DNA from: Actinophytocola sp.
GTDB taxonomy: Bacteria > Actinomycetota > Actinomycetes > Mycobacteriales > Pseudonocardiaceae
DNA length: 64,000 bases
Assembly: GCF_036002505.1 (NCBI RefSeq)
Contig: NZ_DASYTH010000428.1
Coordinates: 76,002 to 140,001, forward strand
Reading direction: 5' to 3'
A model generated the notes under the pieces. It ran no database searches. It saw only the letters and a program-made list of their open reading frames with translations, and was not told where the DNA came from. A program made the translations under genes and the position numbers. Below are positions 13,208-40,007 of this stretch, in pieces. Position 1 is the stretch's first letter, and the number at the start of each line of letters is the position of its first letter.

Positions 13208-14758
13208 ATGCGACGACTGTTCCCGATAGCCGTGGCCGCCGCGCTGGCAGCCGTGGCCTTCGTTCCCACCACGGCCAATGCTGCCCCCGCGACCGCCACA
13301 TTCACGAAAGTCCAGGACTGGGGGACCGGATTCGAGGGCAAGTTCACCATCACCAACGGCACGACCAGCGCCATCAATGGCTGGACGGTGGCGTTCGACC
13401 TGCCCGCCGGATTCTCCATCACCTCGTCCTGGGACGCGGTGCGCGGCGGCAGCGGGCAGCATTTCACGTTCAGCAACCCGAGCTGGGCGCCGACCCTGCC
13501 GGCCGGCGCGAGCACCACGTTCGGGTTCAACGGCAGCCCCGGCAACTTCTCCGGCGGGGTGCTGAACTGCACATTCAACGGCGACAGCTGCAGTGGAGGG
13601 CCGAGCAATCCCGGAGCACCGACGACACCGGGGACGCCCAGCGTCACCGGCACCACGAACTCCTCGATCTCGCTGTCCTGGGGCGCGTCCAGCGGCACGG
13701 TCAGCGGGTACCGCGTCTACGAGGGCACCACGGTGCGTGCCACCGCGACCGGCACCTCGGCCACCGTCTCCGGCCTGGGCACCTGCTCGTCGCACAGCTA
13801 CACCGTGGCGGCGTTCAACAGCGTCGGCGAATCGGCGAAGAGCGGCGCGGTGAGCGCCACGACCGGCGGCTGCACCACGCCGCAGGGCGGACCGGGCGCG
13901 CCCTACCTGTACCTCGGCTGGGGCAACCCGCCGAGCCCGGCCACGGTGATGAGCGCGACCGGGGTCAAGTGGTTCACGCTGGCGTTCATGCTCTCCGGCG
14001 GCGGCTGCACCCCGGCCTGGGACAGCAACCGGCCGCTGACCGGCGGCGTGGACCAGTCCACGATCAACGCGATCCGGGCGGCCGGCGGCGACGTCATCCC
14101 GTCTTTCGGCGGCTGGAGCGGCAACAAGCTCGGCCCGAACTGCTCCAGCGCGACCGCGCTCGCCGGGGCGTACCAGCAGGTCATCAACGCCTACAACCTC
14201 AAGGCGATCGACATCGACATCGAGAACACCGACGAGTTCGAGAGCGAGGTCGTGCAGGACCGCATCCTGAACGCGCTGAAGATCATCAAGCAGAACAACC
14301 CGTCGGTGAAGACCATCGTCACGTTCGGCACCACGACCAGCGGCCCCAACTTCTGGGGCACCCGGCTGATCAACCAGGCGCGGGCGCTGGCCGCGAACGT
14401 GGACGTGTTCACGATCATGCCGTTCGATTTCGGCGGCGGCGCGAACATGTTCCAGAACACGGTCAACGCCGCCGAGGGCCTCAAGAACGCGCTGAAGACC
14501 GCGTTCGGCTGGTCCGACGCGCTGGCCTACGCGCACATGGGCATATCGGGCATGAACGGACTTTCCGACCAGCAGGAGCTGACCAGCCTTGCTATCTGGA
14601 CGCAGATCCGGGACTGGGCGAAGTCGCACGGCCTGGCCCGGCTGGCGTTCTGGTCGGTCAACCGCGACCGGCCGTGTCCGGGTGGCGGGGTGGTCTCCGA
14701 CTGCAGCGGGATCGCCCAGAACAACTGGGATTTCACCAGAGTCACAGCAGGTTTCTGA
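13208..14758 (+). CDS. Chitinase, CBM2 + FN3 + GH18-like catalytic domain
   Basis: Signal peptide, CBM2-like N-terminus, FN3 (SVTGTTNSSISLSWGASSGTVSGYRVYEG), catalytic DIDIEN; GAGGAG RBS. Confidence 0.9.
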   Translation: MRRLFPIAVAAALAAVAFVPTTANAAPATATFTKVQDWGTGFEGKFTITNGTTSAINGWTVAFDLPAGFSITSSWDAVRGGSGQHFTFSNPSWAPTLPAGASTTFGFNGSPGNFSGGVLNCTFNGDSCSGGPSNPGAPTTPGTPSVTGTTNSSISLSWGASSGTVSGYRVYEGTTVRATATGTSATVSGLGTCSSHSYTVAAFNSVGESAKSGAVSATTGGCTTPQGGPGAPYLYLGWGNPPSPATVMSATGVKWFTLAFMLSGGGCTPAWDSNRPLTGGVDQSTINAIRAAGGDVIPSFGGWSGNKLGPNCSSATALAGAYQQVINAYNLKAIDIDIENTDEFESEVVQDRILNALKIIKQNNPSVKTIVTFGTTTSGPNFWGTRLINQARALAANVDVFTIMPFDFGGGANMFQNTVNAAEGLKNALKTAFGWSDALAYAHMGISGMNGLSDQQELTSLAIWTQIRDWAKSHGLARLAFWSVNRDRPCPGGGVVSDCSGIAQNNWDFTRVTAGF

Positions 14759-20055: not shown

Positions 20056-20308
20056 CTCGCGGCCGAGGCTGCGGCGCGGGGTGCGGCTCACCTACGACCG
20101 GGTGCGCGAGACGCACGTGCTGCTGTTTCCGGAGGGCGTGCTGGTGCCCAACCCCACCGCCGCGGCGGTGCTCGAGCTGTGCGACGGAGAGTCCACTGTG
20201 GAGCAGATCGTGGCCGCGCTGGCCAAGCGGTACCAAGGGGTTCGGGACGCCGACGTCACCGGCGTGCTCGACCGGTTCGGCGAGCGGCGGGTGGTCGAAT
20301 GGACGTGA
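20042..20308 (+). CDS. pqqD: PQQ biosynthesis peptide chaperone
   Basis: RPRLRRGVRLTYDRVRETHVLLFPEG..VLELCDG typical of PqqD; overlaps the pqqC end. Confidence 0.85.
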   Translation: MIRPDSRPRLRRGVRLTYDRVRETHVLLFPEGVLVPNPTAAAVLELCDGESTVEQIVAALAKRYQGVRDADVTGVLDRFGERRVVEWT

Positions 20309-21375
20309 GCCCGCCACTGGGCCTGCTGGCCGAGCTGACGCACCGCTGCCCGCTGCACTGCCCGTACTGCTCCAACCCGCTCGACTTGGTGCGCGGCAAG
20401 GAGGAGCTCGGCACCGGGCAGTGGCTCGGCGTGCTCGACCAGGCCCGCGACCTGGGTGTGCTCCAGGTGCACATGTCCGGTGGGGAACCGCTGGCCCGCC
20501 ACGACCTGGTCGAGCTGGTGGCGCGCGCCTCCGACCTCGGCTGCTACGTGAACCTGGTGACCAGCGGGCTGGGCCTGACCGAGCCGAAACTGGCGCGGCT
20601 GGCCGAGGCCGGCATCGCGCACGTCCAGCTGTCCGTGCAGGGCGCCGACACCGAGTTGGCCGACCGGATCGCCGGCACGACCGCGCACGCCCGCAAGCTC
20701 GCCGCGGCCGACGTGGTGAAGCGCTTCGACCTGCCGCTGACCGTGAACGTGGTGCTGCACCGGGCGAACCACCACCAGGTCGGGCCGCTGATCGAGCTGG
20801 CCGAGCGGCTCGGCGCGGACCGGCTGGAACTGGCCAACACCCAGTACTACGGCTGGGCCCTGCGCAACCGGGCCGCGCTGATGCCCACGCCCGAGCAGCT
20901 CGCAGCCGCGGAACCCGTTGTCCGGGCGGCAAAGGAGCGGCTGCGCGGGCGGATGGAGATCGTCTACGTGGTGTCCGACTACTACGAGGCGCACCCGAAG
21001 CCGTGCATGTACGGCTGGGGTGCGCGGCAGCTCACCGTGGCGCCCAACGGCGACGTGCTGCCCTGCCCGGCGGCGTCGGCGATCACCACGCTCGCCCTGG
21101 ACAACGTCCGGGACCGGCCGCTGGCCGAGATCTGGTACGACTCCTCGTCGTTCAACGCCTTCCGCGGCGAGGACTGGATGCGCGCGCCGTGCCGGGAGTG
21201 TCCACGAAGGACGATCGACTTCGGCGGCTGCCGGTGCCAGGCGTTCCTGCTCACCGGCGACGCGGCCGCGACCGATCCGGTCTGCTCGCTCTCGCCCGAC
21301 CGCCAGTTGGTCGACGCGATCCTGGCGGCGCCGGCCGACCCGCCGTTCGTCATGCGCGCCGGAGCCCCGCGGTGA
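20299..21375 (+). CDS. pqqE: PQQ biosynthesis radical SAM enzyme
   Basis: LTHRCPLHCPYCSNP (CxxxCxxC) and a SPASM-type Cys cluster. Confidence 0.9.
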   Translation: MDVSPPLGLLAELTHRCPLHCPYCSNPLDLVRGKEELGTGQWLGVLDQARDLGVLQVHMSGGEPLARHDLVELVARASDLGCYVNLVTSGLGLTEPKLARLAEAGIAHVQLSVQGADTELADRIAGTTAHARKLAAADVVKRFDLPLTVNVVLHRANHHQVGPLIELAERLGADRLELANTQYYGWALRNRAALMPTPEQLAAAEPVVRAAKERLRGRMEIVYVVSDYYEAHPKPCMYGWGARQLTVAPNGDVLPCPAASAITTLALDNVRDRPLAEIWYDSSSFNAFRGEDWMRAPCRECPRRTIDFGGCRCQAFLLTGDAAATDPVCSLSPDRQLVDAILAAPADPPFVMRAGAPR

Positions 21376-21466
21376 GCGAGCGTGCGAGCGAACCATTCAG
21401 CACTGCCCCGGCGCCGAGCCTGCGAGGCGCCAAGGTTTGCCAGAACCGAGCTTGCGAGGTGCTGGC
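21372..21466 (+). repeat. 95-nt intercistronic element, copy 1 (pqqE|pqqB)
   Basis: GTGAGCGAGCGTGCGAGCGAACCATT...; contains the pqqE TGA at nt 2-4 and ends directly at the pqqB ATG. Confidence 0.9.
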
Positions 21467-22339
21467 ATGAAGGTGCTGCTGCTCGGCACCGCGGCCGGCG
21501 GCGGCTTCCCGCAGTGGAACTGCGCCTGCCGGATGTGCACCGCCGGGCTGCCGCCGCGCACCCAGGACTGCCTGGCAGTGAGCGCGGACGGTCGCGGCTG
21601 GTACCTGGTCAACGTCTCGCCGGACATCCGGACGCAGCTCCTCGGCGCCAAGCCGCTCGCCGCCGGGCCGGGGCCGCGGGACACGCCGGTGCGCGGGGCG
21701 TTCCTCACCGACGCCGAGCTGGACCACTCGCTCGGCCTGGCCATGCTCCGGGAGGGCGCCGGGCTGCGGGTCTGGGCACCGGACGCGGTGCTCACGGCGC
21801 TGCGCGCGGACTTCCCGCTGCGCGACATCGCGGCGCGGTACGGGGGCTGGGACTGGCAGCCGGCCGGTGCCGTCGAGGTGGACGGCCTGCGGGTCACCGC
21901 CGTGCCGGTCGGCAGCAAGCGACCCAGGTACGTTCGGTCCGATGTGGACGGACCGTGGGTGGTCGCCTACCGGATCGAGGACCCGGCGACCGGGGGAGTG
22001 CTGGTCTACGCGCCGTGCCTGGCCGAGTGGTCGAAGCGCTTCGACGACCTCGTCGCGGGGGCCACCTGCGTCGTGCTCGACGGCACCTTCTACTCACCCG
22101 CCGAGATGTCCGGCGCCACCGGCGGAAAACTGGACAATGTGCAACGCGCGATGGGACACATCCCGATCGCCGGGCCGGAGGGGAGCCTCGCCCGGATCGC
22201 CGCGCATCCGGGCGTCCGCTGGGTGTACACGCACCTCAACAACACCAACCCGATCCTGGACCCCGCCGGACCCGAGCACGCCGTCGTGCTCGCCGGCGGA
22301 GCGGCGGCGCCGCCGGACGGCACCGAGCTCACCCTGTAG
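21467..22339 (+). CDS. pqqB: PQQ biosynthesis protein B (metallo-beta-lactamase fold)
   Basis: MKVLLLGTAAGGGFPQWNCACRMC typical PqqB N-terminus. Confidence 0.9.
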   Translation: MKVLLLGTAAGGGFPQWNCACRMCTAGLPPRTQDCLAVSADGRGWYLVNVSPDIRTQLLGAKPLAAGPGPRDTPVRGAFLTDAELDHSLGLAMLREGAGLRVWAPDAVLTALRADFPLRDIAARYGGWDWQPAGAVEVDGLRVTAVPVGSKRPRYVRSDVDGPWVVAYRIEDPATGGVLVYAPCLAEWSKRFDDLVAGATCVVLDGTFYSPAEMSGATGGKLDNVQRAMGHIPIAGPEGSLARIAAHPGVRWVYTHLNNTNPILDPAGPEHAVVLAGGAAAPPDGTELTL

Positions 22340-39112: not shown

Positions 39113-39553
39113 ATGAGGATCTCTGTGGCCGCGGATGAGCGGACCGGGGTGGCTGAGGCGATTGTGGACGAGTTGCGGCGGCGGGGGCATGAGCCGGTGG
39201 TGCATGGGGCGTTGAGCGAGGACGAGCGGGACGACTGGGCGTGGGCGAGTGAGGCGGCCGCGCGGGATGTCGCGGCGGGGCGGGCGGAGCAGGGCGTGGT
39301 GGCGTGCTGGACCGGGACGGGGGCGTCGATCGCGGCGAACAAGGTGGGTGGGATCCGGGCGGCGCTGTGTGGTGACGCGGAGACCGCCCGGGGTGCGCGG
39401 CGGTGGAACGACGCCAACGTGCTGGCGTTGTCGTTGCGTACCACCAGCCAGGCCGTGCTGACCGAGATCCTGGACGCGTGGTTCGCCGGCGAGCCCAGCG
39501 CCGAGGATGTCGACGTCGCCAACACTCGGCACGTCGACGAGATCCAAGCGTGA
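39113..39553 (+). CDS. rpiB: Ribose-5-phosphate isomerase B (RpiB/LacAB family)
   Basis: MRISVAADERTG.., GVVACWTGTGASIAANKVGGIRAAL. Confidence 0.8.
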   Translation: MRISVAADERTGVAEAIVDELRRRGHEPVVHGALSEDERDDWAWASEAAARDVAAGRAEQGVVACWTGTGASIAANKVGGIRAALCGDAETARGARRWNDANVLALSLRTTSQAVLTEILDAWFAGEPSAEDVDVANTRHVDEIQA

Positions 39554-39644
39554 GCGAGCTTGCGAGCGAACCATTGAACACTGCTCTGTCGCCGAGCGTG
39601 CGAGGCGACAGAGCAGCCATCACCGAGCTTGCGAGGTGGATGGC
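39550..39644 (+). repeat. 95-nt intercistronic element, copy 2 (rpiB|membrane protein)
   Basis: GTGAGCGAGCTTGCGAGCGAACCATTGAAC...; perfect 13-bp stem CTGCTCTGTCGCC/GGCGACAGAGCAG; followed by GTGA. Confidence 0.9.
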
Positions 39645-40007
39645 GTGATCGGCGGGTTGGCCACCGCGCTGATCATCGCGGCGCTGGGGTGCGCGGCGTG
39701 GGCGCTGGGGATGGTGGTGCTGAACCGGCACATCAACCCGGTCACGTTGGGACTGCTGGCGTTGCTCGAGGTCGCCCTCGTGGTCCAGGCGGTGATCGGG
39801 ATCGTGAACCTCGCGGTCACGGACCGGCAGGTCGCCGGGGGCACGTTCGTGGGGTACCTGATCGCTTCGCTGATCGTCCTGCCGGGTGCCGTGTACTGGG
39901 CGTTGGGCGAGCGGAGTCGTTGGGGCACAGCGGCGTTGGTGGTCGGGTGCCTGGTGGTGCCGGTGATGATCGTGCGGATGAACCAGATCTGGGGGCACGG
40001 TGGCTAG
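39645..40007 (+). CDS. Small membrane protein
   Basis: 4 TM segments; GTG directly after the element. Confidence 0.6.
   Translation: MIGGLATALIIAALGCAAWALGMVVLNRHINPVTLGLLALLEVALVVQAVIGIVNLAVTDRQVAGGTFVGYLIASLIVLPGAVYWALGERSRWGTAALVVGCLVVPVMIVRMNQIWGHGG

Follow-up and report, generated by a model that had tools for sequence, protein, structure and literature searches.

A MIRU-like repeat inserted at stop-start overlaps between genes of Actinophytocola sp. and other Actinomycetota

The pqqE and pqqB genes of an Actinophytocola sp. are separated by a 95-nt repeat, which recurs at two further gene junctions of the 64,000-nt stretch of DNA analyzed here (NCBI RefSeq contig NZ_DASYTH010000428.1, positions 76,002 to 140,001; the whole stretch is called “the window” and coordinates are counted from its first letter). 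The window is part of a soil-type metagenome contig, and its closest named relatives belong to Actinophytocola and Kibdelosporangium (Pseudonocardiaceae). An original prediction, made from the letters alone, had likened the three copies to mycobacterial interspersed repetitive units (MIRUs) that carry a small open reading frame (ORF) across the boundary of two genes. The element is not peculiar to this genome; it is a member of a family found across many Actinomycetota, and it has been inserted at a 4-nt RTGA (R, A or G) in which a stop and a start codon overlap, so that it now ends in RTGA on both sides. With a probability of roughly three in four, we consider each copy to be a non-autonomous, mobile or once mobile intercistronic repeat of this large family, which relays translational coupling between its neighboring genes in a MIRU-like manner.

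Three copies at gene junctions of the window

Copy A (95 nt plus a terminal ATGA, 21372-21470, forward strand) amounts, with this ATGA, to a 32-codon mini-ORF from GTG at 21372 to TGA at 21468-21470, as delimited by alignment, by the ORF itself and by empty sites in relatives. The upstream gene (ORF 20179..21375) encodes PqqE (Pfam Radical_SAM and SPASM) and ends in a GTGA (21372-21375), in which its stop codon (TGA, 21373-21375) overlaps the start codon of the mini-ORF (GTG, 21372-21374), an assignment on which the ORF, Pfam and the periodicity of G+C content at third codon positions (GC3) agree. The copy opens with a head, GTGAGCGAGCGTGCGAGCGAACC (21372-21394), which was recognized by motif scan and by conservation in the family and includes a first box, GAGCGTGCGAG, at 21378-21388. 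Hairpin 1 (21406-21435) has arms at 21406-21415 and 21426-21435 around the apical box GAGCCTGCGA (21416-21425) and is supported by covariation, by RNAalifold and by a predicted energy of -13.8 kcal/mol; hairpin 2 (21439-21466), supported by covariation and predicted energy, has arms at 21439-21447 and 21458-21466 around the apical box GAGCTTGCGA (21448-21457). A Shine-Dalgarno (SD)-like GAGG, read from the sequence at 21456-21459, lies half within the stem of hairpin 2, whose 3' arm begins inside the GAGG and whose final base adjoins the start codon of pqqB. In the terminal ATGA (21467-21470), this ATG overlaps the TGA of the mini-ORF, according to the sequence, the gene call and Pfam. PqqB opens MKVLLLGTAAGGGFPQWNC and matches Pfam Lactamase_B_2, and its gene call is the same at two other loci (L115, L116).

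Copy B (95 nt at 39550-39644 plus a terminal GTGA, 39550-39648, forward strand; head 39550-39572, hairpin 1 39583-39614, hairpin 2 39616-39644) stands between rpiB (39113-39553) and a gene for a 120-aa membrane protein (39645-40007). Copy C (95 nt from 59256 down to 59162 plus a terminal GTGA at 59161-59158, 59158-59256, reverse strand; head 59256-59234, hairpin 1 59222-59192, hairpin 2 59189-59162) is flanked by genes for two hypothetical proteins, of 95 aa upstream (59540-59253) and 128 aa downstream (59161-58775), on the same strand. When a profile built from relatives was run with nhmmer on the whole window, exactly three copies were returned (E 1e-25 to 7e-28; next match E 0.65), at the places that had been predicted and where the sequence itself has them. 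The 95-nt units are spaced 18-20 kb apart and share 86% column identity, counted over the element and about 10 nt of flank on either side. All three open with GTGAGCGAGC(G/T)TGCGAGCGAACCATT, and the box GAGCNTGCGAG occurs three times in each, which gives nine exact boxes in the window.

Each unit is 95 nt long (2 mod 3) and directly followed by ATGA or GTGA, the 32-codon mini-ORF is open in 3/3 copies, and its own TGA overlaps the downstream start in 3/3, as had been claimed. The SD-like GAGG 7-8 nt ahead of the downstream start codon was likewise found in all three, and the stem sequences quoted in the original prediction proved correct. ORFs, Pfam and GC3 periodicity, the last of which confirms the flanking coding frames of all three copies without recourse to stop codons, agree that every copy fills exactly the space between the stop of one gene and the start of the next on the same strand. 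The claim of a gapless alignment had to be given up: copy B needs a -1/+1 indel pair, as it has lost 1 nt ahead of hairpin 2 and gained a 1-nt bulge in the 3' arm of that hairpin (net change zero), so that the C-terminus (last third) of its mini-ORF peptide is read in a different frame.

The names “RHH antitoxin” and “PIN-like toxin”, which had been given to the gene pair at site C, found no support either, since neither gene has a match in Pfam or NCBIfam and the homologues (about 129 aa, in Pseudonocardiaceae) are annotated as “hypothetical” in every case. The pair (58775-59540, reverse strand) resembles a small two-gene cassette, with the motif LDTSAL near the N-terminus of the second protein. 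Homologues of the 120-aa membrane protein and of the 128-aa protein measure 118-131 aa, which fits start codons right after copies B and C. In near-identical metagenome copies, the start of the membrane protein is miscalled 9 nt inside copy B (39636-39648, GTG GAT GGC GTG), which gives 123 aa; homologues elsewhere have about 120 aa, and the 123-aa call is a small annotation artefact of the element. Apart from the repeats, window positions 13291-14756 and 55866-56551 both match one segment of another locus (L098) at 79.5% and 75.6% identity in opposite orientations, and the window thus carries two diverged paralogous genes in inverted relative orientation.

Empty and filled junctions

Orthologous junctions were fetched from relatives for all three sites, a comparison that had been suggested along with the prediction, and empty GTGA junctions were found at each of them. 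At pqqE|pqqB, three relatives (L141, L142 and L143, with PqqB 79, 73, and 71% identical) have an element-free junction that reads ...cgGTGAaggtgctgctg... (GTGAaggtgctg), in which the stop of pqqE and the start of pqqB share a single GTGA, whereas the window reads ...cgGTGA[91 nt]ATGAaggtgctgctg... (ATGAaggtgctg). A 95%-identical relative keeps the element of copy A with two substitutions. The rpiB|membrane protein junction is a bare GTGA in an 83% relative and in an Actinophytocola metagenome-assembled genome (MAG) (L145:499-502, L147:901-904), and it is filled in a 71% relative (L146, 806-904) by a diverged element, again of 91+4 nt. The L146 copy carries another head variant, GCGGAGCTTGCGGAGCG, the same as in L125. 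Site C is represented by a bare GTGA overlap in one relative (L149). These empty junctions with a single RTGA imply that each copy consists of a 91-nt insert plus a duplicated RTGA, and they show that the element was inserted at the 4-nt stop-start overlap.

At the rpiB site, the window and the more distant relative (L146) carry an element, whereas a closer relative (L145) and the Actinophytocola MAG (L147) have none; this points to either independent insertions or precise excision. The contig with the empty rpiB site in L147 (DASTBH010000560) shares its accession prefix with that of L023 (NZ_DASTBH010000470), which bears an element elsewhere; if both are from the same MAG, as the prefix suggests, occupancy is polymorphic among element-bearing genomes.

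Two other ideas about the insertion were discarded. A long target-site duplication was rejected, because the identical flanks of 12-14 nt turned out to be the tails of preceding tandem copies, and the first copies of arrays have unrelated flanks. Similarly, the 3' stem arm is not copied from the ribosome-binding site (RBS) spacer of the target: the empty pqqE|pqqB sites show that what originally lay upstream is still found 5' of the head and bears no relation to the arm. Where the upstream gene is missing or divergent, the RTG of the head lies behind an ordinary SD, e.g., aggagaaagtgacaGTGAGCG, which fits the description of MIRUs as start-codon insertions in a recent review (PMC12548453). Past the terminal RTG, the sequence still matches the head at A (100%, by selection), G (81%), C/T (89%), and G (56%) and then falls to background, a likeness that could reflect an extended target preference or microhomology. 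No terminal inverted repeats were seen in the three window copies, whose ends GCGAGC... and ...GGTGNNGGC are not inverted repeats of each other. The element thus differs from miniature inverted-repeat transposable elements (MITEs), as it lacks such repeats and as its duplicated RTGA is followed by a similarity to the head that fades over 1-3 further bases.

Frames and hairpins of a widespread family

An exact scan for the head (21 specified bases, TGAGCGAGCNTGCGAGCGAACC; one genome per species) found it in at least 114 genome stretches, where by our estimate about 0.3 are expected by chance. Hosts among these matches include the Pseudonocardiales Pseudonocardia, Actinophytocola, Kutzneria, Labedaea, Sciscionella, Amycolatopsis, and Actinokineospora, furthermore Nocardia, Rhodococcus rhodnii, Micromonosporales, Actinomadura, and Blastococcus, as well as Nakamurella, Nocardioides, Actinospica, and MAGs of Acidimicrobiia; none of the matches listed (at least 114 loci) is from Mycobacterium. 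Three loci labeled as Bryobacterales and Candidatus Melainabacteria MAGs (L011, L062, L087) hold typical 77-nt elements and are most likely mis-binned actinobacterial contigs rather than hosts outside the phylum.

The commonest forms, of 74 and 77 nt, consist of the head, a variable hairpin, CCGAGCG-NN-AGCGAGG, 6-8 nt, and RTGA. The 95-nt form with two hairpins is a subfamily that was found in Actinophytocola and Labedaea, too, and on 23 metagenome contigs in a second scan. Near-identical elements occur at different loci (L118, L136). Where 2-3 units are arrayed in tandem, the period is 62, 71, 74, 77, 89, or 95 nt, each of them 2 mod 3; exceptions are an array of 75, 75, and 77 nt that forms one long ORF terminating in GTGA, an array with a 70-nt period in which the ORF stops 5 nt short of the next start, and 30-nt in-frame units within a coding region. 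At L040:1480-1570, three in-frame 30-nt head units encode an N-terminal (SELASEPSGL)x3 in a DUF2461 protein (Pfam E 2e-4), i.e., a repeat expanding within a coding region.

Besides these forms, a head-only form of 33 nt (0 mod 3) adds an in-frame N-terminal extension, MSE(L/R/P)ASEPxxQ, to housekeeping proteins. Such loci (L073:3235, L077:4761, L078:3003-3025 on the reverse strand, L092:849, L109:6083, L086:3784, and L052:3131-3153 on the reverse strand) have fusion partners that were identified from their translations alone as SdhA, TrpA, MetY, NuoF, CobN, LspA, and a PrpD-like protein. Two Kutzneria genomes (L036:4500 and L058:1322) differ at the junction upstream of a hydrogenase-maturation-protease-like gene: the full 77-nt element of one corresponds to the 33-nt form of the other, a difference of 44 nt that switches RTGA coupling to in-frame fusion. 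The family also affects annotation, as gene callers misplace starts inside the element and the head-only form tags housekeeping proteins with MSELASEP. Long ORFs after heads had been considered as candidates for an autonomous parent; they are host genes fused in frame (SdhA, TrpA, MetY, NuoF, CobN, LspA, a TetR regulator) and not transposases. In Phytohabitans (L018, L042, L046, L067), what comes after the head is another conserved stretch, CATCAGGCTCAG..., without tail box or RTGA; two of these loci (L042 and L046) are at two places in one chromosome and have long flanks in common, and the variant may be a chimeric or larger repeat.

Database searches placed the element in no recorded family. 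Rfam gave nothing at the gathering threshold over the whole window and just noise at E up to 10, the mini-ORF peptides belong to no Pfam or NCBIfam family, blastn found no match in plasmids, and a scan for the head found none in viral contigs. A covariance model (R1) run on 100 loci was of little use, as it recovered essentially just the seeded copies and their tandem neighbors. The family is undescribed in the literature searched by sequence strings and keywords, which covered few subscription journals, so that its absence from the literature is unproven.

Coding frames across the family were assigned from GC3 periodicity, independently of stop codons, after the longest open frame had been discarded as a guide because in this high-G+C DNA it misclassified even pqqB. 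Downstream genes are co-oriented with the element in 95/99 cases (96%), and their frame is offset from the RTG of the head by 2 (RTGA-coupled) in 69, by 0 (in-frame fusion) in 19 and by 1 in 7 (chi-square p 1.5e-15); 93% of the co-oriented downstream genes are thus either RTGA-coupled or fused in frame. Upstream genes are co-oriented in 73/87, and for 57 of these 73 the TGA of the head is their stop codon. In 84/95 short copies, the ORF that starts in the head runs up to an RTGA as its first in-frame stop. The overlap is exact in 21 of the 30 distinct 95-nt copies, and 5 others stop 8-9 nt upstream of it; the remainder comprises two in-frame fusions, one stop 4 nt past the start and one early stop. 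A single open frame of 32 codons is not significant in DNA of such G+C content; the weight comes from the family and from the empty sites.

The hairpins were tested for covariation in 29 distinct copies of the 95-nt class, with shuffles and slid 3' partners as controls. In the two hairpins, 88% of cells are paired, compared to 32-50% in the slid controls, and changes on both sides occur in 10/19 base pairs; the covariation score reaches 0.234, whereas shuffles give 0.12 +/- 0.011 (0/500 as high) and slid controls 0.03-0.06. These counts bear out the compensatory changes that had been noticed in both hairpins of the window copies, and hairpin 1 was independently recovered by RNAalifold. The last hairpin is general: over 61 copies of the 71-116-nt classes, native arms reach -12.3 kcal/mol vs. 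-10.3 kcal/mol for swapped arms (p 6e-4), and in many of these copies the 9-bp stem is perfect in spite of an unrelated sequence. G.U-type pairs are in excess over A.C-type pairs (21:8 and 42:9), which favors folding of the sense strand and hence probably of RNA. In the window, predicted stabilities are -11 to -16 kcal/mol for hairpin 2 and -14 to -22 kcal/mol for hairpin 1, and neither hairpin is followed by a T-run, which makes them unlike canonical intrinsic terminators. A head-tail pairing that RNAalifold proposed for the 77-nt class was rejected as uninformative (all pairs invariant, just -8 kcal/mol).

Head columns that were unconstrained by the search are conserved at 95%, compared to 58-85% in spacer, stems and linker; hairpin tips and head are conserved in sequence, while the stems covary. 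A bulged hairpin 2 is common to copy B, L118, and L136 at different loci; given such identical stem variants, the stems are lineage markers and the structure matters in the life cycle of the element. Overall, placement and orientation in the family are not random with respect to genes, lengths are predominantly 2 mod 3, in-frame stops are infrequent and the stems covary with statistical support, i.e., none of the patterns appeared that the original prediction had listed as contradicting it.

A putative coupling relay and its counterparts

Translational coupling would probably survive the insertion as follows. The former start codon of gene 2 and the RBS upstream of it would now open the mini-ORF within the element, while the 3' end of the element would provide a new GAGG as SD and an RTG start for the downstream gene. 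As the unit is 95 nt long (2 mod 3), the TGA of the mini-ORF overlaps this new start, which would result in two termination-reinitiation handovers, from gene 1 to the mini-ORF and from the mini-ORF to gene 2. Ribosomes that terminate gene 1 at GTGA would reinitiate on the mini-ORF, unwind the hairpins, terminate at the RTGA supplied by the element and reinitiate on gene 2 with the aid of the GAGG. The last hairpin would bury half of the new SD, and mini-ORF translation would probably have to open it, with the expected effect that the downstream gene stays coupled instead of being initiated independently. The insert might be tolerated because the element rebuilds what its insertion interrupts; a loss of those insertions that break the chain would explain both the 2-mod-3 lengths and the second tolerated class, the 33-nt head-only form.

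Several observations weigh against such a relay. Translation of the mini-ORF, reinitiation and the melting of the hairpin by ribosomes are all steps that we infer, and no transposase or other mobilizing function was identified, including near the elements, in a survey that did not comprise a genome-wide enzyme search. The exact overlap is not present in every copy of the 95-nt class (21/30), so that the frame constraint is a tendency, and the frame statistics are inflated by the shared ancestry of length classes. Both substitutions in the 95%-identical relative of copy A hit a “conserved” box, which implies a weak constraint on the box in situ. The G-rich SD arm could contribute part of the G.U excess, and, taken singly, the copies have unremarkable fold-energy z-scores (+0.2, -2.2, and -1.7). 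Finally, the head (95%) and the hairpin tips are very highly conserved, which a relay neither needs nor explains. Head and GAGC-N-GCGA tips are most likely recognition features for the agent that propagates the element.

One candidate for this agent is an HUH/Y1-type enzyme, for which the hairpins would be signals on single-stranded DNA and which would insert 3' of RTGA in the style of REP/RAYT or IS200/IS605; this proposal concerns movement, is compatible with a relay of coupling, and appears unlikely to us without being far-fetched. The missing terminal inverted repeats, the structured ends that abut RTGA on both sides, the tetranucleotide target and the inheritance of stem variants as lineage markers at different loci would all suit such an enzyme. 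Precise excision, which is typical of the IS200/IS605 enzyme family, could also account for an rpiB site that is filled in two lineages and empty in the lineages between. However, no enzyme of this kind was identified, although no genome-wide search for one was made, and the bias of G.U over A.C fits RNA more readily than DNA. A GTAG-type motif, as carried by REPs, is not visible in the element, and the variable 1-3 head-like nucleotides past RTG recall microhomology or an extended target preference rather than cleavage at a fixed position.

The element might instead be a cis-regulatory RNA module, whose hairpins bind a trans-acting RNA-binding protein at their tips or determine processing or stability; it would set the expression ratio of the two cistrons and be kept for this role, and the mini-ORF would be incidental. 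The conservation of tips and head next to covarying stems, the G.U excess, the partial sequestration of the SD and the moderate stability of the hairpins (-11 to -22 kcal/mol) fit this idea. On our reading of the sequence, the tip could also form a CUUG-type loop closed by a G-C pair together with tandem G.A/A.G pairs, and the head would be a nested version of this arrangement, GAGC-GAGC-UU-GCGA-GCGA. An RNA module is nevertheless rather improbable, since the genes on either side have no function in common (pqq, rpiB, hypotheticals, sdhA, trpA, metY, nuoF, cobN, lspA), occupancy of one junction varies between close relatives, tandem copy number varies, and no Rfam family matches; it also leaves the 2-mod-3 length and the RTGA at both ends unexplained.

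The mini-ORF raises the question of a functional 32-aa peptide as the selected product, a very improbable explanation that is largely refuted. It could draw on the ORF being open in the three window copies and most family members and on a conserved N-terminus, VSE(L/R)ASEP. However, the variable base N of the head box GAGCNTGCGAG falls on a second codon position and encodes L, R, P or H, and the compensatory changes in the stems alter the peptide. Frame-changing indels leave segments of copy B and L146 wholly different at an unchanged 95 nt; in L146, four indels with a net change of zero keep a 32-codon ORF open up to GTGA, and the encoded peptide is unrelated. The G+C content by codon position (.66/.68/.77 in mini-ORFs vs..72/.49/.92 in downstream genes) gives no coding signature, 23.5% of mini-ORF codons end in A or T compared to 7.6% in downstream genes, copy C even holds a TTA codon, and the peptides lack a Pfam or NCBIfam match. 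Judged by these sequence patterns, it looks as if the frame is selected and the peptide is not, in keeping with a caveat of the original prediction. Chance, low complexity or a purely local tandem duplication without dispersal is already refuted: G+C-rich DNA does yield an average of 9.8 one-mismatch motif matches in shuffled sequence, but not nine exact boxes in three units, an nhmmer E of ~1e-26, elements at unrelated loci in many genomes, or precise empty sites.

A relay of translational coupling by a mobile or once mobile repeat thus remains the reading that we prefer. More tentatively, and with considerable doubt, box and head might be the signature of a still-active, Actinomycetota-wide system that targets stop-start overlaps, of which MIRUs would be a diverged branch and whose tips would be read by a dedicated protein, i.e., an as yet unrecognized mobilizing enzyme on single strands or an RNA-binding regulator. 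If this were true, the elements would form a dispersed layer of post-transcriptional control inside operons instead of being inert passengers.

Other short repeats share parts of this design. REP/BIME/REPIN, ERIC, Correia, RUP, and SMAG sequences are likewise short, structured, dispersed, non-coding intergenic repeats, which may affect mRNA structure or stability, and REPs are mobilized in trans. However, these repeats mostly lie after genes or between convergent genes, show no frame lock, start codon, SD or stop-start targeting, and their MITE-type members have the terminal inverted repeats that are missing here. The targets of Rickettsia palindromic elements (RPEs) are coding sequences, where these repeats become part of the translated host protein; as in the 33-nt head-only form, the repeat is tolerated because the reading frame is preserved, whereas the full element described here lies between cistrons and has its own ORF. 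A further parallel is found in engineered bicistronic designs and the delivery of ribosomes by upstream ORFs, in which a leader ORF ends on the start of the gene, the SD lies inside the leader, and translation of the leader clears secondary structure (PMC12548453). These are synthetic or single-locus devices and not a dispersed repeat family.

Almost all work on MIRUs, whose units are 53 and 77 nt long, has to our knowledge used them for typing a few pathogens that grow slowly. In two reviews, they are 50-100-nt units that occur singly or in tandem within operons and co-oriented with the genes, like the family described here (PMC12548453, PMC6286618). They insert at start codons and carry a small ORF that is coupled at -4 spacing (PMC12548453, citing Supply 1997), so that in both cases the ends of small ORFs overlap the neighboring stop and start codons. 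In both, most units have a length of 2 mod 3 (62-95 nt in this family), an SD-like purine run precedes the restored start, and both contain the 11-nt box GAGCG(T/C)AGCGA (GAGC-N3-GCGA), as GAGCGTAGCGA or GAGCGCAGCGA in MIRUs and as GAGCGCAGCGA in the 74-nt class here. In contrast, the 23-nt head, the one or two covarying hairpins with conserved tips and the in-frame head-only form distinguish this family from MIRUs, as does its occurrence in Pseudonocardiales, Nocardia, Micromonosporales, Acidimicrobiia, and others, given that MIRUs are “found only in mycobacteria” according to one review (PMC6286618). Beyond the 11-nt box, family hidden Markov models (nhmmer) match nothing in arrays built from published motifs, and pairwise local alignments are no better than shuffles, in a comparison based on the consensus motifs A and B and not on the 41 M. 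tuberculosis loci.

The proposed match to MIRUs hence stands for the logic of insertion, orientation and frame and fails for the sequence, where the 11-nt box alone is common to both. The element is a short dispersed or tandem unit, intercistronic and co-oriented, with an ORF that overlaps both the flanking stop and start, and it departs from MIRUs in consensus sequence and mycobacterial host range; it is analogous to them and not demonstrably homologous. As far as could be checked, the family is a previously unrecorded, widely distributed MIRU analogue, which introduces no new principle but for which targeted insertion and constraints on frame and structure are unusually cleanly evidenced. 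Regarding MIRU mobility, a 2025 review states only that they “appear to be mobile”, citing the 1997 paper (PMC12548453). The MIRU-type questions of mobility, function and origin become much more approachable in this family: it follows the same design, its filled and empty sites are cleanly resolved, it has numerous subfamilies and hairpins that covary, and it is present in hundreds of genomes, many of which belong to culturable and tractable hosts (Nocardia, Kutzneria, Pseudonocardia, Micromonospora). Both the mobilizing agent and the survival of insertions in operons by a coupling relay thereby become testable by comparison and with simple reporters, which makes this family the better system in which to ask what MIRUs do.

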